DNA of 48,684 nt from a virus. Every line of letters begins with the position of its first letter. The first letter of the stretch is position 1. A model generated the notes under the pieces. It did not search any database, had not been told where the DNA came from, and saw only the letters and a list, made by a program, of their open reading frames with translations. Made by a program: the position numbers and the translations under genes. The DNA is taken from positions 1 to 48,684 of the IMG/VR virus record IMGVR_UViG_3300036766_000644; one strand, given 5' to 3'. Below are positions 13,626 to 36,370 of the stretch, piece by piece.

Positions 13626-14779
13626 CGCTGCTGCTCTTGATCGTCGTTGCTCAGGGCGCGGTTGAGTGCGTACATGCCGCCACCGAGCATCAGCATCTTC
13701 GACAGACCACCCCCGGGTCCCGCAGCGGCGGCCTGGGGCACAACAGGGGGCCGCTTCGCCTTGAGCTTGTTGTGCACGCCCTCGGCGAAGTTGGTCACTT
13801 CCGCAGCACCGGGGAGGGGGAGGGGGCCATGCCCACGCTCCGCGGCGAGCTGGTTCAAACGCCCAACCCCTTTGCCGTACTCCTTGTTCATGGCGAGTCC
13901 GATGGCTCGAGGATCCGTTGTAGCTGGGGAGAGCCCAAGCTCCATCAGGTGCTTCCGCCAAGCGGGGTGGGGGATCCCTCGAGCGCCTTGCGCCAGCTCA
14001 TTCGCGAGGAACTTTTTGCCTGTGTCACTCTGCCCGATGTGTTCACGGAGCTTGTTGATGGCGAAGTGCCCGGCCAAGCCAGGTTCTGCGATAGCCGCGG
14101 CTCCGCCAACAGCCGTAGGGATTGCCCGCTGCCACGCCGGGAGGTCTTCGAACTTGGTACCGCGTGCTGTAGTTGGGATCAGCTTGTGTAGCCAGCCGGG
14201 CTTTTTGGCTGCTTCAACGGCCCCCGGGATGCTCCCGACGACAGGTGCCTTCGACAGGTGCTCCGTACCTTTGATGATCCGACCCCCCGTACGAAGAAAA
14301 TTCTCTCTCTGCTCCGGGGTCATTCCTTCGGGCTGCTTACCCATCGCAAGCCCAGCGTGGTACGGCGCCAGGCTCTCTGCACCGAGGCCCCGCGAGATCA
14401 TTCGCTCGACTACGGGATGCATCTGACGGTCACCGCGCCCGTGCGCCATCCCTGACGCCATCATCCGCTCAGCGATGTCCGGTCGGTATTTCTTAACGAG
14501 TTTCTGAAGAACGTTTCCCCCAACGTGGGAGGCAATGCCCCCTCCGATGACGTGCCCGAGCAGAGCTTTTCCGCCCATCCCCAGAGCACCGATGGTGAGG
14601 GGGTCGAAGGCTCGCTTCTCCCGCATCGAAGGGATGGTGAGATTTTTAGTCCCGGACTTCCGTGCGCCTTCGAGCCATTCCTGCGCCCAGGTCGGAGGAG
14701 GACGCGGAGTTCCGTTCTGAAGCCCGAAGCGGCTGCAGGCGTCTTCCTCACCGGCTTGCTTGCTGTAGTACCGGTTCAT
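13619..14779 (-). CDS. Gly/Ala/His-rich hypothetical protein (386 aa)
   Basis: Long ORF. Its start overlaps the upstream gene's stop by 4 nt. Composition is similar to the neighbouring 376-aa protein. Confidence 0.45.
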   Translation of the reverse strand: MNRYYSKQAGEEDACSRFGLQNGTPRPPPTWAQEWLEGARKSGTKNLTIPSMREKRAFDPLTIGALGMGGKALLGHVIGGGIASHVGGNVLQKLVKKYRPDIAERMMASGMAHGRGDRQMHPVVERMISRGLGAESLAPYHAGLAMGKQPEGMTPEQRENFLRTGGRIIKGTEHLSKAPVVGSIPGAVEAAKKPGWLHKLIPTTARGTKFEDLPAWQRAIPTAVGGAAAIAEPGLAGHFAINKLREHIGQSDTGKKFLANELAQGARGIPHPAWRKHLMELGLSPATTDPRAIGLAMNKEYGKGVGRLNQLAAERGHGPLPLPGAAEVTNFAEGVHNKLKAKRPPVVPQAAAAGPGGGLSKMLMLGGGMYALNRALSNDDQEQQRY

Positions 14780-15906
14780 GCGTCACCGTGGCCGCGCGAA
14801 ATAGTGAGCGGCGATGCCTCATTCGCGGTCTGCGTCTTATGCCGCCTGATCGGGAATTCCGCGCGCTCCCGCTGGGCGCCTTCGAACGCCTCGAGACCTT
14901 CTTGCCTGCGATTTTCGCCAGTGAGGTGGTGGTACGCGCTCCCAAGGCCAGCGCCACCTAGTCCTGCGAGTAGCGCTCCACCTACTCCGCTCTTCGGTGC
15001 GAACTTCGCGGCTCCTGCCGCAGCCAGAGCTGCGCCCAGTGCCGGATGAAGAAGGCTACCGCGCTCACCTTCTGCGTCCATGACAGCTTCAGGGTCGAAA
15101 CCGGAATCGGCATACTCGAAGCCTCGTTCAATAGCCGCGTGAGGAACCCAGCGGCTCATCCCGGGGAGACGCTCCTTCTGGTCCTTCATGCTGATCCCGA
15201 GCCCGCCCATACCAGGGACACCGATGCTGCCGCCGATGTCCACCGCGAGCTTGAATTGTTCCAGAGAGCTTTTTTTGTAGCCCCCCTGCTCGGCGAAGTG
15301 TTGCCGCATCCCTGCCATGACTTCAGGGTCCATCCCAAGGGGCGCCGCTACGGGCGGAGCGCCGCCAACACTGGGTTGTTTGATAACCTTCGGATCCTGC
15401 GTTGGGAGGTACTCTCGGCGCTTCAGCTTAGCCGCCTGGGCTTGCAACCCTTGCTGGCGTTCACGCTGATCGCCGATATCCTTGATCTTCTGTACTCCTG
15501 GAGGCAGCTTTGGCTGCACCGGGGTGGGGGGAGCTACCCCAGCGGGAACAGCCTTCACCTGCGCCCCCGCCTTCGGAGTCGGAGGGGCGTTGAGCCACTG
15601 CATCGCGCGCTCTTTGCCCTGTGCCAGGATGGCAGCGCCGACGTCTTCCATTGAATGTGGCTTGGCGACGGGAGCAGCAGGGGCGGGGACAGGAGCTTTC
15701 CCTTTCCCTCCGATCGCTGATTGAAGGCCGTACGCTCCGAGGCCGCCCATCAGAGCGCCTTTGCCTTCTTCACCTTCGGGGGCAAGGGCGTAGCCCGCAG
15801 CAGCGCCCAGGGCGGGCATGATGACGTGGCCTAGGCCGGACTCTTTGGTGAGTCCGAGCTCGAGCGCGGCGTCCAGGCTGCCCAGTTTGTAGGCGTCCGA
15901 TTCCAT
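14776..15906 (-). CDS. Gly/Ala/Pro-rich hypothetical protein (376 aa)
   Basis: Long ORF with GGxG-type low-complexity segments. Confidence 0.45.
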   Translation of the reverse strand: MESDAYKLGSLDAALELGLTKESGLGHVIMPALGAAAGYALAPEGEEGKGALMGGLGAYGLQSAIGGKGKAPVPAPAAPVAKPHSMEDVGAAILAQGKERAMQWLNAPPTPKAGAQVKAVPAGVAPPTPVQPKLPPGVQKIKDIGDQRERQQGLQAQAAKLKRREYLPTQDPKVIKQPSVGGAPPVAAPLGMDPEVMAGMRQHFAEQGGYKKSSLEQFKLAVDIGGSIGVPGMGGLGISMKDQKERLPGMSRWVPHAAIERGFEYADSGFDPEAVMDAEGERGSLLHPALGAALAAAGAAKFAPKSGVGGALLAGLGGAGLGSAYHHLTGENRRQEGLEAFEGAQRERAEFPIRRHKTQTANEASPLTISRGHGDA

Positions 15907-15923: not shown

Positions 15924-16184
15924 TTACTCGGACTTTGGCCCAGCGGGGACCTGCATTGAGATTTTCTCAGCGGGGCGCTTCTGGAAGTTGTGTACGTACC
16001 CCGCCTTGTACCTCTTCGAGGTCAACGAGGTCGCAGTGATGACCGTGAAGATGTGCCCGCCGGTCGCCCGGCGCGTTGCAGGACTCTCGTGGCATTCCGG
16101 ACACTCGATCTCATTGTCCCCTTCAACCAGGGCTTCGAATTCGTGTCCGCATGCCGCACATCCGTAGTCGAACAATTTTCGCAT
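15924..16184 (-). CDS. FmdB-family zinc-ribbon protein
   Basis: N-terminus MRKLFDYGCAACGHEFE...ECPECHE matches the FmdB pattern YxYxCxxCGxxFE...CPxC. Confidence 0.55.
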   Translation of the reverse strand: MRKLFDYGCAACGHEFEALVEGDNEIECPECHESPATRRATGGHIFTVITATSLTSKRYKAGYVHNFQKRPAEKISMQVPAGPKSE

Positions 16185-17942: not shown

Positions 17943-18232
17943 TAGAAGATACTCCCAGGTTTCGTCTGCACAGCGAGGTAGCGTCTCCGCCAGATGCCCG
18001 CGGGCTTACGCGGTTGAACCAGTGCTTGGTCTACCCGATCTGGGGCCAAGGGACCAGGCGGAACAAGCGCTTTTCGAAGACCACTCAAGTCAATGGGCGC
18101 CCCACCACTCGACACCACGCGAGCCTCGAGGGCCTGGAGGCGTTGTGCGATGCGGAGACGTTCAACACGGAGCCGCGTCTCCATGAGTCGCTGCACTACG
18201 TCAGTCAGTTGAAGGTCGGTGTCCCAGGACAT
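17942..18232 (-). CDS. hypothetical protein (TAATG-coupled to the 582-aa gene)
   Basis: The ORF extends to 18337, but the upstream part overlaps the divergent promoter region. An internal Met at 18232 is the chosen start. Confidence 0.3.
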   Translation of the reverse strand: MSWDTDLQLTDVVQRLMETRLRVERLRIAQRLQALEARVVSSGGAPIDLSGLRKALVPPGPLAPDRVDQALVQPRKPAGIWRRRYLAVQTKPGSIF

Positions 18233-18258
18233 GCTTCCTCGAAGTACCACGCCCAAGC

Positions 18259-18267
18259 GGGTATAAG
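18259..18267 (+). promoter_or_regulatory. GGGTATAAG box, copy 3 (divergent region)
   Basis: Exact 9-mer, followed at 18290 by a GTATGAGT box like the one at 4536. It lies upstream of the plus-strand genes at 18351. Confidence 0.35.
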
Positions 18268-18350
18268 TCGACTGAACCACCACCAACTTAGTATGAGTTA
18301 CGCCCAGTAGTCCACCACCATCACGGACCCAACCCAACGTTGAGGAACTG

Positions 18351-18683
18351 ATGGCAAAAACAAAACTGCTGCTGCTGATCGATGTGGATGAAGATGTCCT
18401 ACCTCAGGGGAACGCGTATACCGCGCTACCCGACCAACTGTACGGCGCTATTTTTGATGCGCTGCCCGGAGGGGGTCTCGAGCTCGCCGCCATGTACATG
18501 GTGAATCCGAAGGAAGACGTAGAGCAGAAGGCCCAAGCAATGTCGCTGCACTACCATCACTACGCCGTCAGCATTCGGGGAGAAAAGTGCGAAGAAGAGG
18601 ATTGCGAACTTCACCCGCATAAGAATGTAATCAACTTCCATGATCACAGACAAAGAAATAGTACTGCTCCAGGGGTTAACTGA
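18351..18683 (+). CDS. hypothetical acidic His-rich protein (110 aa)
   Basis: First gene of a plus-strand two-gene cassette inside the late region. Confidence 0.4.
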   Translation: MAKTKLLLLIDVDEDVLPQGNAYTALPDQLYGAIFDALPGGGLELAAMYMVNPKEDVEQKAQAMSLHYHHYAVSIRGEKCEEEDCELHPHKNVINFHDHRQRNSTAPGVN

Positions 18684-19074
18684 CGAACGCCCAATCGCCG
18701 TAAAGCTCGGAGACGGACAAACGACCCTGCTGTACGCACGCTGGTTTGTCCTCGAGCTGCCCACAGAGTTGTTCCGGCTTGACCTGAAGTCCTGGAAAAG
18801 CAAACCGCGTGTAGAGGCCCTGGCTTGGAGAAAGCTGCTCCCAGCCGACGGAGGAGCCTACGGCCAGCCGATCCGAAAGACGTCAAAAGATGGGAAGCAA
18901 CTGATTCAATTGATCGCAGATACCGGCGTAGCGTACATACACGCATCGATCTACGATGTAGTAGCTAAGCAACTGACGGAGCCTGAGTTTCGCGTGTTTC
19001 CCGAGCCTCAGGCGTCTGTAGGGATCCTCAGCGGCGGTGAACTCCGCGGGGGTGTTGGGCAAGTGACGCTGTAG
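18640..19074 (+). CDS. hypothetical protein (144 aa)
   Basis: Second gene of the cassette. Ends at a terminator. Confidence 0.4.
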   Translation: MITDKEIVLLQGLTDERPIAVKLGDGQTTLLYARWFVLELPTELFRLDLKSWKSKPRVEALAWRKLLPADGGAYGQPIRKTSKDGKQLIQLIADTGVAYIHASIYDVVAKQLTEPEFRVFPEPQASVGILSGGELRGGVGQVTL

Positions 19075-20698: not shown

Positions 20699-21463
20699 TT
20701 ACGCCGGGTTGTCGCCCTGGGTCAGGCCGTCACCGTTGTCGCCCAGAGGCGCCGGAGTCGTCCCGAAGTCGAGGAGCTTGTCCACGGTGCTGCGGGGGAT
20801 CTGGCCGCCACCTGTTGCGACGTCGGCGAGCTCGAGCGGTAGGAGACGGTCTGCCAGGCCGGAGACGTTCTCCAGGATCATGTTCTGCCCGGCGTTCGCC
20901 GACACGGCGTACGAGTTGATCATCGCCAGCTCGGCGTAGAACGAACCGACCAGGTCGTGCGACTTGTTGCGGAAGAAGCAGGCGAGCCCGAACGGTACGT
21001 AGTAGAGCTCGGAGTCGAGGTTGATGAAGAAGTTGCTGTTCGCAGACTTCGCCGCCGGGTCGTCGAACTTATGGACCTCGATCCCGCCCTTGACCGCGTT
21101 GTGGTACAGCACGCGAAGAAGGTTGCGCCCGTTCACGAACAGGCGGGCGATGGTCCACTGCGTCTGGGCCTTGCCGGACACGAAGAACGAGCGGCCTGAG
21201 CCGATCGCCATCATCGGCTGGGTCGGCTTGGTCTGGGTGAACTGCACGCTCTGGAGCATGCCGATGGCCAGGAGGGTTCCCTTGGTCACGTCGGTCGCCG
21301 CGGAGTTGGGGACGACAGTACCCTTACGCGGAGGACCTGCCAGCACGAGGGTGTCGTCGGGATGGGCCGCGGAGTAAGCCGCGTTGTCCATCTCGCGCTC
21401 GACGTAGTTGTCTTGGAACTTCCAGCTCTCTACGCCAGTCGTGATGCCGATTCCGTTAGCCAT
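20699..21463 (-). CDS. putative tail tube protein
   Basis: Lies downstream of the sheath. GSGRSFFVSGKAQTQWTIARLF loosely resembles the tube segment of T4 gp19 (NRKINVAGDRTFDDWTVTV). Confidence 0.35.
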   Translation of the reverse strand: MANGIGITTGVESWKFQDNYVEREMDNAAYSAAHPDDTLVLAGPPRKGTVVPNSAATDVTKGTLLAIGMLQSVQFTQTKPTQPMMAIGSGRSFFVSGKAQTQWTIARLFVNGRNLLRVLYHNAVKGGIEVHKFDDPAAKSANSNFFINLDSELYYVPFGLACFFRNKSHDLVGSFYAELAMINSYAVSANAGQNMILENVSGLADRLLPLELADVATGGGQIPRSTVDKLLDFGTTPAPLGDNGDGLTQGDNPA

Positions 21464-21472
21464 CGAGGTCTC

Positions 21473-21733
21473 CTAGTGCTTGCCCAAAAGTTTCATTGCG
21501 GTCGGGACGGCGAGTAGCGCAAGCCCCGTGAGATCCGACGTGTGTTTAAGCTTGTTGACCACAGGGCTGTCGTCGGAGTCCCCTGCGATGAGGCTGTGTG
21601 CGACAGGCGCAGCGATGAGGCCAACCCCTGCGAGATCAATAACATGTTCGGCGAAGGGCTTCAGGCCCGGCATTGCGAGCGCGAACTTCTCGAGAGCTGC
21701 TTGTGCTCCTTGCTCGTACGCCATGCGGAACAT
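21473..21733 (-). CDS. small protein, AYxxGxxxAxxKF N-terminal motif family (86 aa)
   Basis: Starts MFRMAYEQGAQAALEKFALA. Hydrophobic middle region. Confidence 0.4.
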   Translation of the reverse strand: MFRMAYEQGAQAALEKFALAMPGLKPFAEHVIDLAGVGLIAAPVAHSLIAGDSDDSPVVNKLKHTSDLTGLALLAVPTAMKLLGKH

Positions 21734-21734
21734 G

Positions 21735-22420
21735 TTACCCCACCGTCGAGACGATGTCCTGAACCTGCTTCTCCGTCAAGCCCAGGTACTCGGAGGCTTC
21801 CTTTACTGAGTAACCCTTCTCCGACAACGCCACCACCGCACCGGCGACCTTCGCCATGTCGATGGGGGTGAACTCCGTGTCCGCCTGGATGTTCACCGGA
21901 CGGCCGAAGGTGTTCTGCTCGGCGCCCTTGATGATGTCGTCGATGATGGAGCGCATATCAGAAGAGTTTTTGTTTAGCTGGTAGTCCCATTCGCGCGTTT
22001 TCTCTGGGAGTGTCTCAACTTTTGCGAAGTTGCTGACGCTCGTGTTCGAGCGCGGAGAATACCCGTCACGCTTTGGGTACGTGACGTCCGCCGGTGTCTT
22101 CGGCGGAGTACGCTTCGCCGTCGGTGTGAGCTTCTCCTTGCTCACCTGCTTGATCTTCTCAGACCCCGTCATGTACGAAGACGGCTTGTTAGCCATCACC
22201 GCGATCTTCTGGATCAACTCGTACGCTGCCTTGTTCATTGGTACGTTTCCCGGGGGTGGGCGCATCTGCGTTTCGGACTGCCGCTGGGACTCTTGGTGCA
22301 TCTCTTTGCGGATGTCACGGTTGAGCCCTTTGTTCGACTTGGTGAATGGCTCTATCTTCGGCGGGAATACCTGCGGGTACCCGGCCAGCTTCAGAATCAA
22401 CTGCCGGGTAACCGAGTCCA
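21735..22420 (-). CDS. Lys/Ser/Thr-rich protein with C-terminal HTH-like segment
   Basis: TAATG coupling to the sheath stop. C-terminal segment is EASEYLGLTEKQVQDIV. Confidence 0.35.
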
Positions 22421-25204
22421 TTACACGCTCACGAGGTGAAGGGCGATGACGTTCAGGGGAGCCGGGAACTGGCACTCGACGTAGATCTCGAGCCGGTCAG
22501 CTGACGTCGGGGATACCGCGATGGAGACGAGCCGCCCGTCGATGATGGGGGCGCCGATGCGAGGACGGCGGCGGAGCTTCAGGTTGTCCACGCCCCCGGT
22601 GATGGAGGTGGAGACGAAACCCATGGTCTCCTTGTTGACGTTCCAGATTCCGAGGTACGCGTCCAGGATGTCCGCGAAGAAGAGCGACACGAAGTCGAAG
22701 TTCTTCACCATCGAGAACTCGCCGGACTGGAGAGTCGCGACGTCGGTGGTCAGCTGGTGCACCACGTACGGCAGGGCCAGCGGCGTGTCCTGCTGGAACA
22801 CGAACCAGCCACCGTTCGAGATGTCGGTGATGTTCTTGTCGCTGAAGTACGTGTTCGCGTTGTAGATCTTCGAGATGCCCGCGATACCCAGGTTGGTGAA
22901 GCCCTGGTGCGAGGGCAGGCCCGCGGTCATGCCGCCGACGGCGCATGCGAGGTAGTACCCCGGCTGCGAAGCGGCAGGCTGCGACACCGTCGGAGCGGCG
23001 GGGTCGCGAGGCAGAGAACCGTCCACCAGGCTGCCGACGTCGCAGAGGTCAGGCCACACGTTGACGACACGGCGGCTGTTGAGGCTCTGCGCCACTGCGA
23101 TGATCTCCGTGACCTGGCCAGCTTTGTCGAGGGTCCGGGCGATGCGGTAGGTCAGCGTGGTGGTCGCCGGGATGCTGGTGACTGGGCTGTTGCGCGACGC
23201 CCCGTGCGGGAGCTCGTTGGCAACGAGCGAGGTGTTGCGCCCGTTGTCCACGATGCGGAGCCGCTGATTCGACACGACAGCCGCCACCTGGAAGGTGTGC
23301 TTCTCGGTGAAGCTCTGTTGTGTCGGGTTCATCGGCATCTCCACCAGGTCGGTGGGGATGACGCCGGAGTCGTAGAACGTCCCGTTGGGGTCGTAGAGAT
23401 CGAGGAACAGCTTCGAGTCGAGAGTTGTCGCGGCGGGGACGAGGCCCGTCAACGGGATGCGATCCCCGACCGTCGCACCCACCTTGATGTTTACCGTGGC
23501 GGTAGCTGCCTGAGCACCGCCAAGCACCTCGGTGTCCACCTCGAGCGAGGTGGCGCTAAGCACCTGCGCGATGGTGTACGAACCGCTGCGGTTCGCCCCA
23601 ATGCCGCCAGTGAGCGTAGTAGCACCCCACGACATCGCGACGTTGTTGTCCGCGGTAACGATGCTGTTCCCTGCGACACCAGCGACCGAAGCGGTCGCGT
23701 TCATCGTGTCCCCTGCCCCTGCTGCGACGGAGACGAATCCGTTCGCAGTGGTAGCCGCAGCATACAGTGTCCCAGACCCGGGGCCGAGGTTGATGGCCGC
23801 GATCAGGTTGTCGATGGAGTCCGTCGCCAGAGTACCGATGAGCACGTACCCGTTGACGTTGGTGAGCACCGTCTTGAAGGTGTACGTCTTGGTCCCGATG
23901 GTGACAGTCGCACCATCAGCGGCGTTGGCCACCAGCGTCAGAACGCCGGTCGCTGCGACCGGAGTAGTGGTGTCCCCTGCGAGAACCAGGGTGTCCCCAG
24001 GCTGAACGTTCGAACCGACCAGGTTCAACGTGGAGAAGTTGAGGGTGTGGTAGGTGGTCGGAGTCGCGAGAGCCGCGTTGATTTCCGTCTTACCGTCGGT
24101 GTTCTTGTCGATGACGAGCTTGGTGACCGGGAGCACCGCCGAAGAACCGATGGCGACACGGAACTTCTGCGGGACACCGTTGGTGAGGGCGTAGTCCGGA
24201 TCTGCGAGTGCGGTGAATTCCGCGTTCAGCATCGCGAGAACCAGGATGTCTGAGCTCAGCGGGACTACCGCGTAGATGTCCTTGCGGCCCCCGATGGAAT
24301 CCTTCATCGAGGTGTACCCGGCGAGGTCATCCGTGCCGATGCCGAAGTACTGCACCGTGGTGTTGGTGTTCTGCAGGGCGACGGACACGCCGACGGCCAG
24401 GGGGTTACGTGCGTCAACCCGCCCAAGCTGCCCGACGATTTCATTCCCCGAGCCGAGAGTCTTCACGTCTTGCAGATCGGTACGCAGCGACCGGTAGGCG
24501 ACGTAGAGCTCGCAGGAGACAATGCGCTTCTGCGCCGTGCCTACGGGCAGAGTTGCGAGGGCGTCCACGGTGATGCTGTTGGTCGCAGGCACGAAGGTGT
24601 AGAAGCTCGCGTCGATCTCCGACTCGGCGAGAGTGCGCTCGATACGGAACTTAACCAGCGTGGCTGCGAAGCCCGTGGGGATCTCGCTGTTGAGGACGAG
24701 GGTGTTCGTCCCGTTGAAGTTGCCTGAGGAGTCCGTAGGGCCGACGATCGTCCGAGTAATCCCGACGGTCGGCGTCGCGGGGTCCGTCAGGACGATGGTG
24801 TCGAGAATCTGGACACCCGCCGCGACAAAGTCCGTCCCAGCGGAGCCGACGTTCGGGGTCAGGGCGGTGGTGGTCATGTCCGCACCGACTACCAGCTCGA
24901 CCTGGGTCTTGCTGGTGAACACGCGGACACTCGCCTGATCGAGGATGGCGCCGACCTTGTTGTTCGGTGCGTCTGCCCGAGTCACGGCGGCGGTAACAAC
25001 TGCTGCGCCCGTGGCTGCTGCGCCCTTCACGCCGTAATCGGTCGCGTTGGCGAGGCCCCACTTGATGTTGGCCCGATCATCAGGGAAATCTTGGAGCCAG
25101 TAAGCAGGACCTGCGACGAGGCAGTTCAGCTCCGGGGTGGCCGGGCTGCTGCTGAGGGTTGCAAACTCTTGGAACACCAGGACTACAGGGCGAGTAGCGG
25201 CCAT
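22421..25204 (-). CDS. contractile tail sheath protein (927 aa, with insertion domains)
   Basis: C-terminal PGYYLACAVGGMTAGLPSHQGFTNLGIAGI matches the conserved sheath segment PSGAVAGVYA...GV.KAPAN..L.GV. Thr/Val/Gly-rich and large. A tube candidate lies downstream. Confidence 0.55.
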   Translation of the reverse strand: MAATRPVVLVFQEFATLSSSPATPELNCLVAGPAYWLQDFPDDRANIKWGLANATDYGVKGAAATGAAVVTAAVTRADAPNNKVGAILDQASVRVFTSKTQVELVVGADMTTTALTPNVGSAGTDFVAAGVQILDTIVLTDPATPTVGITRTIVGPTDSSGNFNGTNTLVLNSEIPTGFAATLVKFRIERTLAESEIDASFYTFVPATNSITVDALATLPVGTAQKRIVSCELYVAYRSLRTDLQDVKTLGSGNEIVGQLGRVDARNPLAVGVSVALQNTNTTVQYFGIGTDDLAGYTSMKDSIGGRKDIYAVVPLSSDILVLAMLNAEFTALADPDYALTNGVPQKFRVAIGSSAVLPVTKLVIDKNTDGKTEINAALATPTTYHTLNFSTLNLVGSNVQPGDTLVLAGDTTTPVAATGVLTLVANAADGATVTIGTKTYTFKTVLTNVNGYVLIGTLATDSIDNLIAAINLGPGSGTLYAAATTANGFVSVAAGAGDTMNATASVAGVAGNSIVTADNNVAMSWGATTLTGGIGANRSGSYTIAQVLSATSLEVDTEVLGGAQAATATVNIKVGATVGDRIPLTGLVPAATTLDSKLFLDLYDPNGTFYDSGVIPTDLVEMPMNPTQQSFTEKHTFQVAAVVSNQRLRIVDNGRNTSLVANELPHGASRNSPVTSIPATTTLTYRIARTLDKAGQVTEIIAVAQSLNSRRVVNVWPDLCDVGSLVDGSLPRDPAAPTVSQPAASQPGYYLACAVGGMTAGLPSHQGFTNLGIAGISKIYNANTYFSDKNITDISNGGWFVFQQDTPLALPYVVHQLTTDVATLQSGEFSMVKNFDFVSLFFADILDAYLGIWNVNKETMGFVSTSITGGVDNLKLRRRPRIGAPIIDGRLVSIAVSPTSADRLEIYVECQFPAPLNVIALHLVSV

Positions 25205-25278
25205 TGAAATCTCCTACGTCGAAAGTCGTCGCTTCCCAAGGTATAGGTGAGCGAGGGGCGGGAAACAAACGCCTGTGG

Positions 25279-25977
25279 TCACTTGATGTACTGCTTCAGC
25301 AGGTAAACGTCGGGATTTGTTTCCTTGGAATCTCGGTACCGCAAAACAATGTCGGTCAGCAGAGGGCTGATGGGCAGGGTCGTCCAACGTAGGTCAAACT
25401 GCACTTCGAACGTGATGTGCGTTGACCACTGCCCCTTATCTCCCTCAAACGGAACAGTCTTCCCCAGGATAGGCGGAGTCAGCTCGTGGAGTCCGAAAGT
25501 TGATCGGATCAAATCACGCCCGGCCAAGATGTAGAACCAAACGATATCCCCGAGGATGGCGCTTTCACCTTTCGCGTCGGAGACCACTTCAATATCCATC
25601 GGCGCCGTGCCGAGGGCGTAGTACCCTGTGAGGCCCGTACGAAGTTGCTTCCCGGCCATGTTGCCGATAGCGACCTTGCCCGCGGACGTCTCACCCTTGT
25701 CGATGTAGATCGCTGGACGGTAATTTCGAACTTCAGTGTTCTCGTTGAACGCCGGTTCAATGACGATCCGACGAGGAGCGTCTTCGGTGTTCTCTTCCGC
25801 CGCGGTAGGAGTAGAATTCTCATTCCACGTCCACGCCAGGCCGTTCCCTGGCCGAAATCTCTCTCGCACGATCTCCGTGAAAAGAGCCACGATGGCCAGG
25901 GGGGAACCAACGGCGATATCTGCCTGCTGCCCGGCTACTCGGGGTAGCTGCTGGTTCTGGTTGTTGATGGTTCCCAC
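25279..25977 (-). CDS. hypothetical structural protein (232 aa)
   Basis: Lies within the tail block. Confidence 0.35.
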   Translation of the reverse strand: MGTINNQNQQLPRVAGQQADIAVGSPLAIVALFTEIVRERFRPGNGLAWTWNENSTPTAAEENTEDAPRRIVIEPAFNENTEVRNYRPAIYIDKGETSAGKVAIGNMAGKQLRTGLTGYYALGTAPMDIEVVSDAKGESAILGDIVWFYILAGRDLIRSTFGLHELTPPILGKTVPFEGDKGQWSTHITFEVQFDLRWTTLPISPLLTDIVLRYRDSKETNPDVYLLKQYIK

Positions 25978-25986
25978 GGGAGAAGC

Positions 25987-26817
25987 TTAGAACAGCGGAG
26001 GAATCCGTGTTGGGTCAACGACAATCCGGTATTCCACGGAACTACGGGCGAGCTCACTCACCTCGAGCTTCTGGTGCACGCCGACCGTCTTGAGCTCGGT
26101 CTGGATGACCGCCTTGACGATGAATCGCTTGTTGTCCTTGAGGAACACCAGCACATCATCAGGCTCAACCTTCGGAGCGTCGAGGATCGTCACTTGGGTT
26201 GGTCGATACTCCGCGATCCCTTGCGGGGCCAACTGTTTGGCCGCAGGTAAGGTACCGCGCCGACCAAGCGTCAAGATGGGCGCAAAGAAACCCGGGGTAA
26301 AACCCGTGCCGAAGCAAGTTGAGCAATTCGCTCGCGTAACCGCCTTCGTCGTCTTGTCCCAACACACGGTACATCGCGGCCCCCAGTGCATGCGCTTACA
26401 GACTGCGACCTCAACCCCGTTGAGCTTCTTGAAGGTGAGGCTCTCGTCTCGGAGGATCTTACGCTTCAGCAGACGCTGCGGGCCATCGAGTCGAGGCTCG
26501 ACGATAGAGACGACTTCAACCTCGTTGTCGCAGCCCGACGGCGGAGTGACCACAACGCGGTAAAAGATCCCTCGAGTCAGTGAGAGCTGGTTGATGGCTC
26601 CAACTTCCTGCGTTGAAGTCGTCGGAAGAACGTCACTGAAGTTGTAGATGTCTACCCCGCCAAGCGCCAGGGGTTCCCAAGGGCCCTCAGGTCCTCCGGA
26701 GCGGTACACATCAAAACGGAACGAACCGACCTCCGTGGGATTGATGAGATCCCACTGGAGGAACACCCCCCGAGGAAACAGCGGCAGGAGCCGCGTTATT
26801 TCAACGGTCATGGCCAT
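25987..26817 (-). CDS. hypothetical structural protein with Cys cluster (276 aa)
   Basis: Contains CKRMHWGPRCTVCWDK...CSTCFG. Confidence 0.35.
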   Translation of the reverse strand: MAMTVEITRLLPLFPRGVFLQWDLINPTEVGSFRFDVYRSGGPEGPWEPLALGGVDIYNFSDVLPTTSTQEVGAINQLSLTRGIFYRVVVTPPSGCDNEVEVVSIVEPRLDGPQRLLKRKILRDESLTFKKLNGVEVAVCKRMHWGPRCTVCWDKTTKAVTRANCSTCFGTGFTPGFFAPILTLGRRGTLPAAKQLAPQGIAEYRPTQVTILDAPKVEPDDVLVFLKDNKRFIVKAVIQTELKTVGVHQKLEVSELARSSVEYRIVVDPTRIPPLF

Positions 26818-27080
26818 TACGGCGCTGCCCCGATCATCGCTTCGTTACCTGCGTTGAGGAAGTCGCTGGGCCTGGTGGAGTTGAGTGCGTCGAACGCTTT
26901 ACCCACAGAGCGGTTCTGTCGCCCGGGCTCGTTGAACTGCGTGCCGTATGCACGACGGCCGTTGTCCGCCGAGATAGCGTCTTTCTTGATCGGACGCCCC
27001 GTCAACTCGAAGTTGAACTCTGCGAGCTTGAACACCGCCATCGCCGCGGTGCAGCCGCTTTGGTAGGCTAGCTTGTTCAC
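26817..27080 (-). CDS. small protein, AY-motif family (87 aa)
   Basis: Starts MNKLAYQSGCTAAMAVFKLA. Confidence 0.4.
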   Translation of the reverse strand: MNKLAYQSGCTAAMAVFKLAEFNFELTGRPIKKDAISADNGRRAYGTQFNEPGRQNRSVGKAFDALNSTRPSDFLNAGNEAMIGAAP

Positions 27081-27694
27081 TTGAGGCCCCCCGACCGGGA
27101 AACTGTTTCACCGCGAGCATGCGAAGCCGTCTCAGTAGCAACGTTGAGCGCCGGGTTCGCGGGAGGAGCGTTCCCTGTCGCCGATACGATCCCCCCGGGG
27201 GCTCCAGCGGTACCAGGGGTCGAGGTCGACGCCGCTGCCTGAGCCGGGATCGACGCAACAGATCCCGCCGCGGGAGCCGTCTTGGCTGTCTCAGTCGTTA
27301 CATTACTCCCGACAGGAGATACGCCTTTTGCGATCGAAGTAGCCTTCGACTTCGGGGGGTTGCTTGGCGCGAAGAGGGCCGCTGTCTTCCCCGCTGCGGG
27401 CGCGGGTGTGGCCACCGGAGATGCCACCGCCGCGGGAGGAGCCCCTGTCGCGATGGCGGCCTGTTGATTTGTGTGGCCTGCGCCCGCGGCGGATGGCGTC
27501 GGAACCATACCGTTAACCTGCGTGATCGCAGATGGCGCTGCTTTAGCGGGAACCATGTTCGGTGCGCCTCCAGAAACCGGAACACCGGTAGGGGGAGGAG
27601 CTACAACGCTGCCAGGGGCGCCAGCAGGGACTGCTGCGAACTTCGTCAACGCGTCCCTCGTGCCCCGGTTGTACGCCATTTCGATGATGCTCAT
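27077..27694 (-). CDS. Ala/Pro-rich protein, AY-motif family (205 aa)
   Basis: Starts MSIIEMAYNRGTRDALTKFAAV. The rest is low-complexity A/P/T/S. Confidence 0.4.
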   Translation of the reverse strand: MSIIEMAYNRGTRDALTKFAAVPAGAPGSVVAPPPTGVPVSGGAPNMVPAKAAPSAITQVNGMVPTPSAAGAGHTNQQAAIATGAPPAAVASPVATPAPAAGKTAALFAPSNPPKSKATSIAKGVSPVGSNVTTETAKTAPAAGSVASIPAQAAASTSTPGTAGAPGGIVSATGNAPPANPALNVATETASHARGETVSRSGGLK

Positions 27695-27978
27695 TGGAGA
27701 CCGCCTGTCGTGTCCGACTTGAGCTTGTTCGTCGGGGTTCCGCCCTGCATCGTGCTGTTGGTGTGGGCGGGCTGGGTGAAGCTGGAAGGATCAGTGAGCG
27801 CCGTAGCGTTGTAGTTGAAGTTCTGCCGGATGTTCTGGGCGCTGTCCCGGTGATGCGTCGTAGCGACCGGGGACCCGGTGTCCCGCCAACTCGACGCTCC
27901 GTCGGGCCCAGCAGCCGAAGCTCCGCCGAACTTGGCGAAGGCGGCACGACGACCCGCGTTGTAGGCGAAGTGATTCAT
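27691..27978 (-). CDS. small protein, AY-motif family (95 aa)
   Basis: ATGA coupling to the upstream gene. Starts MNHFAYNAGRRAAFAKFGGAS. Confidence 0.4.
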   Translation of the reverse strand: MNHFAYNAGRRAAFAKFGGASAAGPDGASSWRDTGSPVATTHHRDSAQNIRQNFNYNATALTDPSSFTQPAHTNSTMQGGTPTNKLKSDTTGGLQ

Positions 27979-28469
27979 GACGAGTGGAAGAACCTCGAGA
28001 CGTTGCGGTAGCCGGAACCGAGAGAACCGTAGCACGCCTCCATGTTGCGAGAGATCTTGTAGTTCTTGGCCTTCTCCTCGAACTCGGCCTTGCACATCTG
28101 CGCAAGGGCAAGGTACTGCTGCTGCTTGTCGTCGAGGCCGATGGGCTGGATGTCGCCGTCCTGGTAGGTGACCTGGTTGCGGGTCTGGCGGAACGCCTCA
28201 CTCATCGACAGAAACTCTGCGCAGCCAAGCAGCATGATCCATGAGTTGATGCCATCAACTGGGTCGCTCGACGGCGGTGTCATCACGTTGAAGCGCGCTG
28301 CCGTGAACTTGATGGCCCGCTGGAGCTCCAAGTCGGAGAACTGCGGGAGGTCGAACATGATGTTGTACGACCCGGTGTTCGGGATCTGCCCGGCGATATC
28401 GCGGATGAACCCACGGATATCATCCTGGGTGATGACCAACGTAGTCGTCGGTGTCGCGGTAACCGGCAT
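27975..28469 (-). CDS. hypothetical structural protein (164 aa)
   Basis: Coupled ORF in the tail block. Confidence 0.35.
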   Translation of the reverse strand: MPVTATPTTTLVITQDDIRGFIRDIAGQIPNTGSYNIMFDLPQFSDLELQRAIKFTAARFNVMTPPSSDPVDGINSWIMLLGCAEFLSMSEAFRQTRNQVTYQDGDIQPIGLDDKQQQYLALAQMCKAEFEEKAKNYKISRNMEACYGSLGSGYRNVSRFFHSS

Positions 28470-28475
28470 GGCTGC

Positions 28476-28904
28476 TTACCCCTGGAAGCCGCGGCAGGTG
28501 GTGGCCCAGCAGCGGGCGACCATGGCAGCGGTGGCGGTGGTCGTCTTGATCTGCACTGCTTGACTGGGACCAAGAGTCAACCGCGTGATGTACGACAGCG
28601 TGGCCGCTGTTCCGCTGGTCAAGAGCATGGACTCACCCGAGATGACCGCGCCAGTGGTATCGAGGTTCACGATGAAAACCTGGTAGGCGATCGAGCTACC
28701 GAAATCTGCCATGACGTTGTGCACGACGATGGGCTCCGACTGCTCGAAGTCGAACAAGCCGCCTTTGATGTCCGTAGCGAACTTGGTCATCCCGTTTCCA
28801 GATGTCTGGACGGACGTCGATTTTGCACCGGTGAACTGGGACCCGGCTGTGATCAGCTGCTGGATGCCTACGGGGCTTACGCCTACAGGAAGAAGAAGGG
28901 ACAT
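28476..28904 (-). CDS. hypothetical structural protein (142 aa)
   Basis: Lies within the tail block. Confidence 0.35.
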   Translation of the reverse strand: MSLLLPVGVSPVGIQQLITAGSQFTGAKSTSVQTSGNGMTKFATDIKGGLFDFEQSEPIVVHNVMADFGSSIAYQVFIVNLDTTGAVISGESMLLTSGTAATLSYITRLTLGPSQAVQIKTTTATAAMVARCWATTCRGFQG

Positions 28905-28913
28905 GAAAAGCTC

Positions 28914-29465
28914 CTAGACAGTGACTTCGGTTTTGTCGGGGCCGTACAGCCCCTCTTTAGCGAATTGGACGGTGTACGTGAAGCCCGTCGTAAGGGAAAT
29001 CGGGTTTATCCAGTTACCCTGTGCGTTGGTCATCGTAATGGCCAGCGGTGTCTCCGTGTTTCCTTGATCGAAGTCGGTCTTCCTATAGACGCGGATGACC
29101 GCAGCCTCGACGGGGATGCCCCCGGCCGTCTGATACCGGAGTGACCCGGGGAACCCGTAGTTGTGATCCACTTTGACGATGTTCGGGATGGCAGGAGCTG
29201 AGCTGACAGGCTGAAACGGGGTCGACGGGACACTGAGCTGGTTGACCGTGTCGATGGAGGTCAGCCGGTAGTACTTGGTCGTATCTCCGGTCGCGTCGAG
29301 GTACCAGAACACCCCCAACAGTGTGTCGTAGTTCGGCCCCAGGAGATTGTGAGGGACATTCACCAGCAAGGTCCACACAGGCGTCGTGAGGTTGTCCGAA
29401 CGCTCGAGGTTGTAGCTGGCGATATCCGCTTCGGCGCTGGGCTGCCATGTGATTTTGATGCCCAT
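28914..29465 (-). CDS. FN3-like domain protein (183 aa)
   Basis: ITWQPSAEADIASYNLERS...TKYYRLTSID follows a fibronectin-III-like strand pattern. Confidence 0.4.
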   Translation of the reverse strand: MGIKITWQPSAEADIASYNLERSDNLTTPVWTLLVNVPHNLLGPNYDTLLGVFWYLDATGDTTKYYRLTSIDTVNQLSVPSTPFQPVSSAPAIPNIVKVDHNYGFPGSLRYQTAGGIPVEAAVIRVYRKTDFDQGNTETPLAITMTNAQGNWINPISLTTGFTYTVQFAKEGLYGPDKTEVTV

Positions 29466-29779
29466 TACACGTCCTCAGCCTTTCCACCGCCCGGAGCCTT
29501 CGGAGGTGGATTTGGTGTTTGGTCCACCGCTTTGCCCTGTGGCGCTACTGGCGCCGGGTTCTCTAGTGTAGCCTTTCCTGAGGGCGGAAGCGGAATTGGG
29601 TTGAGCGGGAACGCGACTGCCATGGCTGTCGGAGCCCGAGGAGCCGGATTCGCCACAGCAGCGATAGGCCCACACGGAGGAAGTGGTCGCGGATCGACCG
29701 CGGCCATACCGTCCACGGGGAGGATGCTGGAGAGGTCGTCGTCGTGCAGGTACGCCTGCGTGGCGAAGTAGAGGGTCAT
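29465..29779 (-). CDS. Pro-rich hypothetical protein (104 aa)
   Basis: Coupled to flanking genes on both sides. Confidence 0.3.
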   Translation of the reverse strand: MTLYFATQAYLHDDDLSSILPVDGMAAVDPRPLPPCGPIAAVANPAPRAPTAMAVAFPLNPIPLPPSGKATLENPAPVAPQGKAVDQTPNPPPKAPGGGKAEDV

Positions 29780-30285
29780 AGGACGCGATCAATCCTGAAG
29801 AGGTTGTTCCTGCCCTGAACATCGTACGTCGCCAAGATGTGCCACTCAAACAGCAAGCCCGTGACGCCAGCGGCCTGTGCGTTCGCAGCGGAGTTGTACC
29901 CACGCAGGCGCGAACTGAGGAGGCGGCGAGCGCCGTCGTACACCTGCATGTCGAGGACGGTGTTCTCGTGCTCGAGTGCCAGGAGCCGGAGGATGTTCGT
30001 CTTGTCGGAGTTGACTTCGACCGTCTCCCCCTGCTGCGGGTAGTCGTAAGCCACGACGGTATAGCCTGGGTTGGTGAAGAACTCGTAGATCGCGGAGTAG
30101 TACCCTTCGGCCGTCGGGGTCCAGTTTACGGAGTACAGCCCCTTCATGACGTGCATCGGGTACAGCGTGGCTTCGACGGTGAGCGCGGGATTCAGGATGG
30201 TGACACGCACGTACAGGTCCGTCTTGCCATCGTTAGCAAGCGCTTGAAGCGGAACTGGTTCGTTGAGCGTCGCCCGGAGAAGCAT
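29776..30285 (-). CDS. hypothetical protein (169 aa)
   Basis: Lies within the tail block. Confidence 0.35.
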   Translation of the reverse strand: MLLRATLNEPVPLQALANDGKTDLYVRVTILNPALTVEATLYPMHVMKGLYSVNWTPTAEGYYSAIYEFFTNPGYTVVAYDYPQQGETVEVNSDKTNILRLLALEHENTVLDMQVYDGARRLLSSRLRGYNSAANAQAAGVTGLLFEWHILATYDVQGRNNLFRIDRVL

Positions 30286-30302
30286 GCCGCCTCATTTTAG
30301 GC

Positions 30303-30884
30303 TTAAGTGACAGACTTCACTCCAAGGCCCCCTTCGAAATACTGCATCAGCGTCTGCGGGTCTACGGAATCGGGGTCCTCCTTGAAGTCTTCATAGCCGG
30401 GTGACTGCTGCAGGGCGATGCACACGGCTTCGGAACAGAATACGTTCTGTGCACCTCTCAGGGGGTTCTTCCACTTACGCTTAAGCCAGCGTCCGAGCAT
30501 CACGACGATCTCGCCGAGGAGCCCGCCGTAATCGTACATCGTGCCGAGGTATCTTTTAGCAACGTAGATGAGCCCGACATCAATTGACTTCACGGGTACG
30601 AACACCGCGACGAGCTGGTTCTTCTTCTTGAAGTGTTCGAAGGGCGTGAGCCTGAAGCCGAGCTCGTGCGCCTCCATCACCATGTCCATGTCGAAGTCAG
30701 CGTCATGGTAGATGAAGAAAGCGTGGCTCGCCGTCGACCCAGTGAACTTCCGCACCAACCAGGAGACAGGGTTGAAGCGTTTTGGCGTGCTGAACCCAAT
30801 GCTTACCGGAGCCGGGGGCGCCAAGACCAGCGGACGCTTGATGTCGGGGGTTGTCGTCTCGTTCCAGCAGTGGGGGCAGATCAT
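30303..30884 (-). CDS. putative Cys/His peptidase-like protein (candidate endolysin)
   Basis: ATGA-coupled to a TM+coiled-coil gene. Contains ...TASHAFFIYHD... and a later ...NVFCSEAVC..., consistent with a permuted papain-like (His before Cys) arrangement. Confidence 0.3.
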   Translation of the reverse strand: MICPHCWNETTTPDIKRPLVLAPPAPVSIGFSTPKRFNPVSWLVRKFTGSTASHAFFIYHDADFDMDMVMEAHELGFRLTPFEHFKKKNQLVAVFVPVKSIDVGLIYVAKRYLGTMYDYGGLLGEIVVMLGRWLKRKWKNPLRGAQNVFCSEAVCIALQQSPGYEDFKEDPDSVDPQTLMQYFEGGLGVKSVT

Positions 30885-31273
30885 TTCTTCTTCGCCTTGT
30901 ACGCACCAAGAGCCTTGTTAAAATCCGGAGGCGGCAGGAGCTGAACTGGTACGTCGGAAACGAGGTCGCCGGAGTTGTCTTCTCCGGAGGAGAACTTAGA
31001 CTTTGGGAGCAGGGGGTGCACCCCGGGAACCGATTTAGCGATCTCCACGTGCTCCTTGCGCGCTACCCGTAGCTGCCCACGGATCTCAGCCAGCTCGATC
31101 GCATGCTTGTACGACTCCCCCTGAAGCTCTTTCACATTGGCTTGCATGGCGACGTAGGCCATCTCAGCCCGGATCTTCGCCTCGTCTGACTCCGCTCTCG
31201 CTGCAAGGTACGTGAAGAAGGAGGGGACAATTGCGGTGAGTACCCCGAGGAGGATCTTCCAGTGCATCTTCAT
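30881..31273 (-). CDS. N-terminal TM anchor plus coiled-coil protein (i-spanin/Rz-like candidate)
   Basis: Starts MKMHWKILLGVLTAIVPSFFTYLAA, followed by a charged helical region. ATGA overlaps on both sides. Confidence 0.35.
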   Translation of the reverse strand: MKMHWKILLGVLTAIVPSFFTYLAARAESDEAKIRAEMAYVAMQANVKELQGESYKHAIELAEIRGQLRVARKEHVEIAKSVPGVHPLLPKSKFSSGEDNSGDLVSDVPVQLLPPPDFNKALGAYKAKKK

Positions 31274-31581
31274 TTTTTGACTCCACGCAAGCGGTCGTAC
31301 CCAACGAAGGCGATCGTGAGCCCCAGCACTACTGTGAGCGGATCCGAAAGCCAGGCGTTCCACCAGGACTCAGGTGACTGCCAGATATTTGGCCACCGGG
31401 GTTCAGCGAATCGTTCAAAAGCTTCCCACATCAGAGCGGAGCTCATGCAGAGGATGCTGAACACTGAACGATTGAACGACGCCGCGGCGATACAGCTACC
31501 GATGAAGATCCAGAAGCTCAGATGGATGATGCTCCAGTAGTCTAAGAACGCGTACCCCGCATCACCAATGAGCCAGCTCAC
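31270..31581 (-). CDS. 3-TM small membrane protein (holin-like candidate)
   Basis: Hydrophobic segments IIHLSFWIFIGSCIAAASF, VFSILCMSSALMW and PLTVVLGLTIAFVGY. Charged C-terminus RLRGVKK. Confidence 0.4.
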   Translation of the reverse strand: MSWLIGDAGYAFLDYWSIIHLSFWIFIGSCIAAASFNRSVFSILCMSSALMWEAFERFAEPRWPNIWQSPESWWNAWLSDPLTVVLGLTIAFVGYDRLRGVKK

Positions 31582-31910
31582 AGCGAGCCACCTTCGGTGC
31601 GCTCGAGGATGGTGTGGAGCATCTTCTCGATGTTGGCGTACTGGTCCTTGGCTTTGGTGTCCTTGCCCTCAAGCGTCTTCGTGAGCTTGTGCATCTCGAC
31701 CTGAAGCTCCATTACGATCTTCTCTGTACGGCTAGCTCGGGCTTCAACCATGGGCTCGATCCTCGCTATTTGCGATTCTACTGCCGCCGCCCTCGCCTGA
31801 AGAATGCTGATCTGCTCACGTAGGCCGACCAGGTCAGATTGAAACCGGGCCTTTACTTCTGAGAGATCGTCGTGCGTCACTACTGTGTGTACTACTTCTT
31901 CACTGCTCAT
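31578..31910 (-). CDS. coiled-coil protein (110 aa)
   Basis: Internal start MSSEEVVH with an RBS. The ORF extends further upstream without an RBS. Confidence 0.35.
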   Translation of the reverse strand: MSSEEVVHTVVTHDDLSEVKARFQSDLVGLREQISILQARAAAVESQIARIEPMVEARASRTEKIVMELQVEMHKLTKTLEGKDTKAKDQYANIEKMLHTILERTEGGSL

Positions 31911-36350: not shown

Positions 36351-36370
36351 GTGTCAGGCTCCTTTAGAGG

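Follow-up and report, generated by a model that had tools for sequence, protein, structure and literature searches.

We analysed a 48,684-nucleotide stretch of viral DNA (IMG/VR record IMGVR_UViG_3300036766_000644, positions 1 to 48,684; hereafter the window) and found that four small proteins encoded on its minus strand, A to D, carry the same 18-residue motif near the N-terminus, ahead of unrelated tails. The motif is real, selected, modular and specific to one phage lineage, and it occurs only in clusters of virion-protein genes. We tentatively read it, with somewhat less than even confidence, as a portable tag for the docking or incorporation of late proteins that are disordered or hydrophobic and probably associated with the virion. 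The four carriers and their motif copies, scored with a local hidden Markov model (HMM), are:

21473..21733, minus strand: protein A, 86 amino acids; the N-terminal motif, then a hydrophobic tail (MFRMAYEQGAQAALEKFALA...)
21674..21727, minus strand: 18-residue motif of A, RMAYEQGAQAALEKFALA; 25.7 bits
26817..27080, minus strand: protein B, 87 amino acids, GTG start; the motif, then a polar, probably disordered tail
27021..27074, minus strand: 18-residue motif of B, KLAYQSGCTAAMAVFKLA; 28.9 bits
27077..27694, minus strand: protein C, 205 amino acids; the motif, then an Ala/Pro-rich low-complexity tail
27629..27682, minus strand: 18-residue motif of C, EMAYNRGTRDALTKFAAV; 29.4 bits
27691..27978, minus strand: protein D, 95 amino acids; the motif, then a polar Ser/Thr/Asn/Gly-rich tail
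27919..27972, minus strand: 18-residue motif of D, HFAYNAGRRAAFAKFGGA; 26.6 bits

A preliminary description of this DNA had reported these four genes, their start positions, their shared N-terminal motif and the character of their tails, and our check of the minus-strand open reading frames (ORFs) bore all of this out. Genes D, C and B and a 276-amino-acid gene are chained through ATGA/GTGA stop-start overlaps, the stop of B overlapping the start of the 276-amino-acid gene and the start of B overlapping the stop of C. The start of A lies two bases past the stop of its upstream neighbour. Third-position GC in these ORFs is 0.69–0.78, resembling that of the neighbours (C and D were not computed in isolation). 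The tail of A is hydrophobic, with a 19-residue Kyte-Doolittle mean that peaks at 1.83 over residues 31–49; C contains 24% Ala and 13% Pro; and the tails of B and D are short and polar, without hydrophobic segments.

The pattern AY..G...A...F matched exactly four times when the 48.7-kb window was translated in six frames, only at the N-termini of A to D, against 0.02 matches expected from composition and a mean of 0.037 (maximum 1) in 300 shuffles. Each of the four copies sits 4–6 residues past the start codon on the minus strand; just 2.7% of protein positions lie within eight residues of a start. Synonymous codons at the conserved residues vary among the copies (GGA/GGC/GGT, GCG/GCC), which indicates that conservation acts on the peptide and not on the DNA.

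Relatives of the window were collected through two neighbouring proteins. A 927-amino-acid sheath-like protein led to two IMG/VR contigs of 168 and 190 kb, and a 254-amino-acid tube-like protein led to 62 metagenome loci from sediments, soils and groundwater, with 55–92% identity and on contigs of up to 197 kb. Iterating an HMM of the 18-residue motif over the window and 65 loci (E < 0.05) gave 73 matches, representing 69 unique sequences, with the consensus [RK][ML]AYxxGxx[AD]A[LF]xKF[AKG][LG]A. Occupancy of the conserved positions among the unique sequences was:

Position 3: Ala in 60/69
Position 4: Tyr in 63/69
Position 7: Gly in 69/69
Position 10: Ala or Asp in 65/69 (plus three Glu and one Thr)
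Position 11: Ala in 69/69
Position 14: Lys in 42/69, Arg in 8/69
Position 15: Phe in 55/69, Tyr in 10/69

The start codon lay one to eight codons before the motif in 71 of the 73 copies, and all copies were on the coding strand. Information content falls to background right after motif position 18. Within orthologue groups the motif is better conserved than the tail for A (0.67 versus 0.49), C (0.56 versus 0.40) and E (0.75 versus 0.47), E being a further carrier introduced below, and between families the motifs share 28–50% identity. Twelve orthologues of A retain the motif, and the number of copies varies, with an additional paralogue in locus L010 and four neighbouring paralogues in L039. 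The 254-amino-acid tube-like family comprises 937 clusters in a large protein collection, and the motif has been conserved in hundreds of related phages from metagenomes. The preliminary description had proposed a motif HMM and had allowed that the likeness of four short N-termini might be due to chance; since homologues in related contigs keep the motif, this is not the case.

The count of four proved correct but incomplete: all four copies are present, but two more carriers, E and F, lie in the window, and at least three others lie beyond it. Those in the window are:

14776..15906, minus strand: protein E, 376 amino acids; motif variant MESDAYKLGSLDAALELGLT at the N-terminus
15847..15900, minus strand: 18-residue motif of E; local HMM, 20.4 bits
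13619..14779, minus strand: protein F, 386 amino acids; degenerate N-terminal motif (MNRYYSKQAGEEDACSRFGLQ)
14717..14770, minus strand: degenerate copy in F, placed by alignment on the invariant Gly and Ala

After the motif, protein E continues with a helical hairpin rich in Gly and Ala, a linker that varies and a C-terminal helical domain that is conserved; all of its homologues (38/38) begin with the motif. In one E homologue (P0033), the N-terminal module of motif and Gly/Ala hairpin is duplicated in tandem. The motif of F was not significant alone with the local HMM; we count F as a carrier because of the N-termini of its orthologues, which start MQDLYKLGSADAAKTFGV in L014 and MLRLAKAAGEAAALSSFGL in L001. 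Residues 81–294 of F are homologous to g292 of Bacillus phage AR9 and to a PBS1 protein (phrog_26650, E 9e-11). The AR9 protein, of 235 amino acids, is annotated as a membrane protein, is encoded behind an early promoter and has no N-terminal motif. This homology links the lineage to the AR9/PBS1 jumbo phages, which encode their own RNA polymerases. The F core itself is made of two internal repeats of about 65 residues, and its PBS1 homologue is gene 185.

Locus L107 and the window share 12,268 bp at 100% identity, and L107 reaches 8.4 kb past the right end of the window. The extension contains a split RNA polymerase of the multisubunit type at L107:1-4974, which corresponds to 3.5–8.4 kb beyond window position 48684, together with three more carriers:

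L107 extension, head-gene strand: fused RNA polymerase beta/beta'-N, 1603 amino acids; Pfam Rpb2_6 and Rpb1_2
L107 extension, head-gene strand: RNA polymerase beta'-C, 599 amino acids; Pfam Rpb1_5
L107 extension, head-gene strand, between the RNA polymerase genes: ferritin-like protein
L107 extension, head-gene strand, between the RNA polymerase genes: 95-amino-acid carrier starting MMNLAYAEGKARAEEEFGL
L107 extension, head-gene strand, between the RNA polymerase genes: 200-amino-acid carrier starting MISDFAYAEGSNAAWGTF
L107 extension: 149-amino-acid carrier starting MLPLAQSAGVRAALHSFGV

At least nine otherwise unrelated late proteins of one genome carry the motif. The carriers beside the RNA polymerase genes show that carriers are not confined to tail genes, and the motif cannot be called a feature of the tail module, as had been supposed, because motif proteins also sit between RNA polymerase beta and beta' genes both here and in relatives. 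Every copy that we located lies either in the minus-strand block of capsid, protease, sheath-like and tube-like genes or beside the RNA polymerase beta/beta' genes on the same strand, and neither the pattern nor the HMM found a copy in the plus-strand block at 1–13 kb. All motif genes found therefore lie in clusters of virion-component genes. In Salmonella phage Arash, the RNA polymerase beta and beta' subunits rank among the most abundant virion proteins (PMC10585845), and the location of the polymerase genes on the head-gene strand here suggests a virion-packaged polymerase as in Arash.

The motif behaves as a module. Profile-profile comparison (hhalign) of the post-motif parts of A to E gave a homology probability of 1% or less for every pair. 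Taken with the drop in information past position 18 and the motif-less AR9 homologue of F, the unrelated tails make it reasonable to treat the motif as a modular tag. It also combines with other domains. DUF5661 (PF18905, E 1.5e-10), a separate 65-residue domain of unknown function that the motif itself does not match, directly precedes the motif in the D orthologues of three relatives (L001, L002 and L010) and in the D orthologue P0006; the D protein of the window lacks it. A KSKAQRRWMWA module (phrog_1375) precedes the motif in L093. In the divergent relatives L014, L015, L028, L034-L036, L044-L046 and L050, a fusion ORF just upstream of the tube-like gene joins an IIDDIIKGA...GRPVNIQ domain, a region with a Gly zipper, a degenerate copy of the motif in internal position (...AHEAGAKAAAARFGIKEAF...) and a hydrophobic tail like that of A. 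With an internal copy in this fusion protein and DUF5661 ahead of the motif in other relatives, the N-terminal placement given in the preliminary description does not hold throughout the lineage. In the window, the first domain of the fusion is encoded separately:

21735..22421, minus strand: upstream neighbour of A, 228 amino acids from the ATG at 22421; IIDDIIKGA...GRPVNIQ domain, unfused

This protein has a weak HTH_23 match at its C-terminus. Its residues ~60–80 read MNKAAYELIQKIAVMA, like the start of the motif (MNKLAYQSG...) without the invariant Gly, and may be a decayed copy. By tblastn, DUF5661 was also found in Virus Rctr197k gene 173 (L109:9529-15648), which encodes a 2039-amino-acid multidomain protein; by our own reading of the sequence, that protein also contains a ParB-like stretch (GSHRIAAARTAGLPRIPVV).

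The motif is specific to this lineage in the databases that we searched. Proteins A, B, C, D and E had no Pfam or PHROG match at E up to 0.01 (up to 0.1 for protein E against PHROGs), F matched only phrog_26650, of unknown function, through its core and not its motif, and the motif fitted no Pfam or PHROG family in scans that included about 20 neighbouring proteins. The closest cultured phages are Salmonella phage Arash and Vibrio phages D69, D148 and D181. No copy of the motif was present in the 120 of 181 kb scanned for Arash or in the 47 kb scanned for D69, and these regions also lacked motif-carrying genes. D69 encodes homologues of the capsid protein, the protease and the 164-amino-acid, 276-amino-acid, sheath-like, tube-like and 505-amino-acid proteins in the same order. 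Its 164- and 276-amino-acid homologues are directly adjacent, without B, C or D, its sheath and tube homologues are likewise adjacent, and the arrangement in Arash is as compact. Because the flanking genes adjoin each other without motif genes in both phages, we regard the carrier genes as insertions peculiar to the lineage of the window.

A search of IMG/VR with the exact back-translated pattern gave 35 matches, about 28 of which we read as genuine N-terminal copies, nearly all of them on 100–190 kb contigs of the lineage or on its RNA polymerase region; L103, for example, is the RNA polymerase region of a 179-kb contig shared with L014 and L084. In bacterial and archaeal genomes, the pattern matched 120 times, scattered inside unrelated ORFs that scored 19 bits or less with the HMM. 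Cyanobacterial contigs L127, L140, L144 and L160 contained a repeat reading FAY[LS][ML]G[VI]SAA[LV]KKFGV...LLDSIPIAP in ORFs of about 55 codons, which looks like a dispersed repeat matched by chance rather than a relative of the motif. A word-indexed protein search with a 46-column motif alignment returned a single match, a fragment of an E orthologue. A profile search run exhaustively over 1.84 billion representatives, with the N-termini of the six window carriers, returned seven: two were D orthologues, P0002 and P0003 were repeat proteins that summed weak matches (for example, over units YAYTASGQRDAAADFDL), and P0004, P0005 and P0007 were long multi-stretch matches. Both of these large motif-only protein searches are uninformative about distribution, because the size of the databases bars a short motif from reaching significance.

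The conserved positions 3, 4, 7, 10, 11, 14 and 15 recur every 3–4 residues and would therefore share one face of an alpha-helix; from this periodicity we infer a helical conformation. The centre of the face would be Ala-x3-Gly-x3-Ala, flanked on one side by Tyr/Phe and on the other by Ala/Asp and Lys, and Ala3 (60/69), Gly7 (69/69) and Ala11 (69/69) have the small-xxx-small spacing (i, i+4, i+8). Hydrophobic moments of 0.08–0.26 for five window motifs show no amphipathic-helix character; with the small-residue ridge, they suggest packing against a protein or helix and not membrane binding. In an AlphaFold2 model of E (29 homologues, all motif-initial), the predicted local distance difference test score (pLDDT) was below 50 for residues 1–20, about 79 for residues 31–60, inside a predicted hairpin (H24-41/H47-66), and mostly 84–95 per 10-residue block for residues 241–350, with 67–79 at 281–300. 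Residues 1–20 are the best-conserved N-terminal columns yet are not placed in the model, which would fit, if weakly, a segment that becomes ordered on a partner. Foldseek comparison of the model with PDB and BFVD gave nothing better than E 0.6. The hydrophobic stretches of E and F score 1.25–1.32, under the usual transmembrane threshold.

We propose that one lineage of uncultured, contractile-tailed phages of ~170–200 kb may have attached a module of about 18 residues to at least nine unrelated late proteins. The face of the helix that bears the small-residue ridge would pack tightly against another helix or a groove, and in this way the tag would attach its carriers to one shared partner while the virion is being built. 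The tagged proteins, which are mostly disordered, Ala/Pro-rich, or Gly/Ala-rich and hydrophobic, could then be incorporated into the particle or delivered with it. Helix formation, a common partner, presence in the virion and, for some carriers, membrane activity after ejection would all belong to this picture. The preliminary description had suggested that a shared tag on otherwise different proteins serves docking, assembly or targeting; the tag is indeed real, selected and modular on unrelated tails, and any of these roles may apply to it.

Several observations weigh against the docking tag. The phage collection contains no isolate of the lineage, and because the closest cultured relatives lack the motif, the virion mass spectrometry of Arash is not transferable. 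The AR9 homologue of F is an early-promoter gene product whose annotation is that of a membrane protein and not of a virion protein. AlphaFold2 predicted helix in the E motif only at residues 11–16 and at low confidence. The tails of B and D are conserved roughly as well as their motif. Finally, a strict N-terminal targeting signal would rarely be internal, as the motif is in some relatives, though a docking helix could be.

A bolder version of the docking tag, which we consider possible but doubtful, is that the 18-residue N-terminal helix remains uncleaved and acts as a lineage-wide virion-loading code, the tagged set forming an ejected ‘pilot’ complex. The helix would suffice for one receptor in the assembling particle, in the capsid interior or in the neck or tail lumen, to recruit any protein that bears it. 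These phages would be jumbo phages that also carry their own RNA polymerase in the virion, and the disordered and Gly-zipper proteins would accompany the DNA and the polymerase and open the host envelope.

The main rival to the docking tag, which is not mutually exclusive with it, is self-association: the helices might bind each other through AxxxGxxxA and so join their proteins into a hetero-oligomeric bundle. A, E, F and the fusion proteins might even form a membrane-active or channel complex, either in the membrane of the infected cell at a late stage or once ejected. The invariant Gly and Ala have the small-xxx-small spacing that is a classic helix-helix packing pattern, and in many members the motif directly precedes hydrophobic Gly/Ala/Leu/Pro-rich segments, such as ...RFGIKEAFLPALLPLAGSLLGG in the fusion proteins and the helical hairpin of E at residues 24–66. 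A has a transmembrane-like segment (the Kyte-Doolittle peak of 1.83), the AR9 counterpart of the F core is annotated as a membrane protein, and B, C and D are translationally coupled, as subunits of one complex would be. However, hydrophobic segments are absent from B, C and D, those of E and F fall short of transmembrane values, and self-association leaves unexplained why the motif is 1–8 residues from the N-terminus in 71 of 73 copies. On balance, we think it possible but would not expect it to be right.

Common descent alone would make the carriers diverged paralogues of a small ancestral gene in which the helix is merely the slowest-evolving part, with no shared role. The adjacency of B, C and D and the varying copy number are typical of tandem duplication and gene birth and death, and short disordered tails quickly lose detectable similarity. 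By contrast, the domain joined to the motif in F is an unrelated one, whose homologues in AR9 and PBS1 are motif-less, and in different proteins the motif is paired with DUF5661, the KAQRRWM module or the IIDDIIKGA domain; these domain combinations make pure paralogy without a shared function unlikely. Moreover, homology from tail to tail is undetectable, and an invariant Gly and Ala in 69 sequences from at least nine families with 28–50% identity imply one common constraint.

A special case of the docking tag would be a cleavable propeptide of the type found on T4 internal proteins, which would load its carrier into the prohead by way of the scaffold and would then be removed by the prohead protease. 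The gene block does include a prohead-protease-like domain (41916-43871), the virions of relatives contain enzymes such as RNA polymerase, and the T4 targeting sequence is likewise the sole element common to diverse internal proteins (PMC3012670). However, no column after the motif is conserved in 68 unique sequences, and the carriers share no L/I-x-E or S/A/G-x-E site; the lack of a common cleavage site makes the propeptide less likely. The motif is also internal in some relatives, and the genes of most carriers lie with the neck and tail genes rather than with the head genes. We therefore consider this explanation quite unlikely.

An in-plane amphipathic anchor, by which the proteins would reach the inner membrane of the host, is less probable still. 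The aromatic residue and Lys (K-F) at the end of the motif, followed by hydrophobic or Trp-rich stretches (for example, FKLAEWNWELTG in B orthologues), would suit such an anchor, but the hydrophobic moment is low, mean hydrophobicity is modest, Gln and Arg are interspersed on the would-be hydrophobic arc, and an invariant Gly and Ala would be needless for membrane binding. We dropped it as the main explanation on the hydrophobic moment. Chance resemblance is refuted, as is a repeat of the DNA itself (for example, a regulatory or recombination site) that is read as protein: there are four matches against about 0.03 expected, the motif is conserved in hundreds of relatives, and the codons differ.

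Several known systems also mark unrelated proteins with a short shared element. The T4 capsid targeting sequence has about 10 residues and is followed by a gp21 cleavage site. The motif described here has 18 residues and a small-residue ridge, does not resemble the T4 sequence and lacks a conserved cleavage site; some of its copies are internal, and the genes of most of its carriers lie among those for the neck, the tail or RNA polymerase. The two are alike in that a short N-terminal peptide is the sole element common to diverse proteins, which in T4 (IPI, IPII and IPIII) it places into the particle (PMC3012670). The presence of a prohead-protease-like protein in the genome is a further likeness.

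The cargo peptides of bacterial microcompartments (PduP, PduD) and the loading peptides of encapsulins are terminal helices of about 18 residues that are joined by a poorly conserved linker to unrelated cargo; their amphipathicity is clear and their sequences are little conserved. The motif shares this architecture, and here too many different proteins of one system bear the tag, whereas its hydrophobic moment is 0.08–0.26, its Gly and Ala are invariant, and its container would be a phage particle. PVC/Afp payload signals and the type VI MIX motif are N-terminal markers that tie unrelated proteins to a contractile-tail-like machine, and several of our carriers adjoin sheath-like and tube-like genes. 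PVC signals, however, are longer and weakly conserved, MIX has another consensus, and the motif also marks polymerase-adjacent proteins. With GxxxG/GxxxA and glycine-zipper motifs, it has in common the A-x3-G-x3-A spacing and, in several carriers, long Gly/Ala zipper stretches; those motifs are a generic pattern and not a family, whereas this one lies outside a hydrophobic transmembrane helix and adds a conserved Tyr, Lys and Phe. In type IV pilins and pseudopilins, a shared N-terminal helix co-assembles in the core and the C-terminal parts vary. Here, too, several different co-encoded proteins have in common a conserved, putatively helical N-terminus, a likeness on which the self-association rival draws, but the pilin helix is strongly hydrophobic after its G/FxxxE site, whereas the motif is polar, rich in small residues and without G/F-x-x-x-E. 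By its sequence, the motif belongs to none of these tag systems.

To our knowledge, how large phages select their dozens of minor, internal and ejected virion proteins is largely unknown outside T4, and the motif is a concrete candidate for such a selection signal in a large environmental phage lineage. If it is a docking tag, the accessory virion and ejection proteins of this lineage could be defined from sequence alone, and a small tag would become available for loading foreign proteins. If it is a loading code, it would be a second phage protein-packaging signal after that of T4, mechanistically different and transferable to engineered cargo. If instead the helices bind each other, they would be the sign of a multi-protein complex not seen before, which might be membrane-active and is encoded piecemeal among structural genes. 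Under either reading, the motif is of use in annotating genomes of this kind, which otherwise resist annotation.

The conserved genes that surround the carriers in the window are:

22421..25204, minus strand: 927-amino-acid sheath-like protein; 29% identity to Arash gp236 and 27% to D69 gene 0281
20699..21463, minus strand: 254-amino-acid tube-like protein; 28% identity to D69 gene 0282; anchor for the related loci
27975..28469, minus strand: 164-amino-acid conserved protein upstream of D
25987..26817, minus strand: 276-amino-acid conserved protein downstream of B
38891-39799: major capsid protein, 302 amino acids; 35% identity to D69 gene 0275
41916-43871, minus strand: prohead-protease-like protein, 651 amino acids; phrog_18299, E 6.5e-9

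The preliminary description placed A between sheath and tube genes. Neither the 927- nor the 254-amino-acid protein has a direct match in Pfam, PHROG or PDB sequence searches, and the two labels come through synteny with Arash and D69. Arash, a myovirus (PMC10585845), has in gp236 a virion protein identified by mass spectrometry, with a sub-threshold match to Pfam Phage_sheath_1 (E 6e-4); D69 gene 0282 directly follows the D69 sheath homologue; and a PAAR gene lies downstream in both phages. By this transitive and positional evidence, the 927-amino-acid protein is indirectly identified as sheath-like and the 254-amino-acid protein as tube-like. An AlphaFold2 model of the tube candidate (36 homologues) reached a pLDDT of only 43 and was unusable, because the alignment was too shallow in diversity. 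Residues ~407–541 of the 927-amino-acid protein form an inserted domain with 38–51% identity to parts of the Sonora ‘major tail protein’ (Sonora is a Stenotrophomonas phage), PhiJL001 gp68 and a protein of phage Simon. This insert, which has weak PDB matches to antibody light chains and is absent from the shorter Arash and D69 homologues, is probably an immunoglobulin-like decoration domain.

The capsid assignment is supported by D69 gene 0275, which passes the Pfam Phage_capsid threshold, and by Arash gp226, which is annotated as capsid. The protease-like domain (residues ~36–355) resembles D69 gene 0270, Bacillus phage G gp19, Bxz1 gp95 and Rhodococcus phage E3 gp77, the last of them labelled ‘prohead protease’, and a PDB sequence search gave no match. 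The protein continues into a C-terminal extension of about 300 residues, of unknown function, which could be a fused scaffold. In relatives L080, L086 and L095, the capsid gene adjoins the 142- and 164-amino-acid genes, and in the window about 9 kb of additional genes, including those for 645- and 632-amino-acid proteins, occupy positions 28900-38300; they may be a lineage-specific insertion, perhaps for fibres or baseplate. Directly upstream of E, at 15924-16184 on the minus strand, lies a gene for an 86-amino-acid zinc-ribbon-like protein with a CxxC...CxxC arrangement (MRKLFDYGCAACGHEFE...CPEC), which has 44% identity to proteins of the distant relatives L088, L089 and L099. Between the 505- and 582-amino-acid genes, three small plus-strand ORFs (17909-19074) break the minus-strand structural block; oppositely oriented ORFs occupy the matching place in L001, and those of the window may be a moron or regulatory island.

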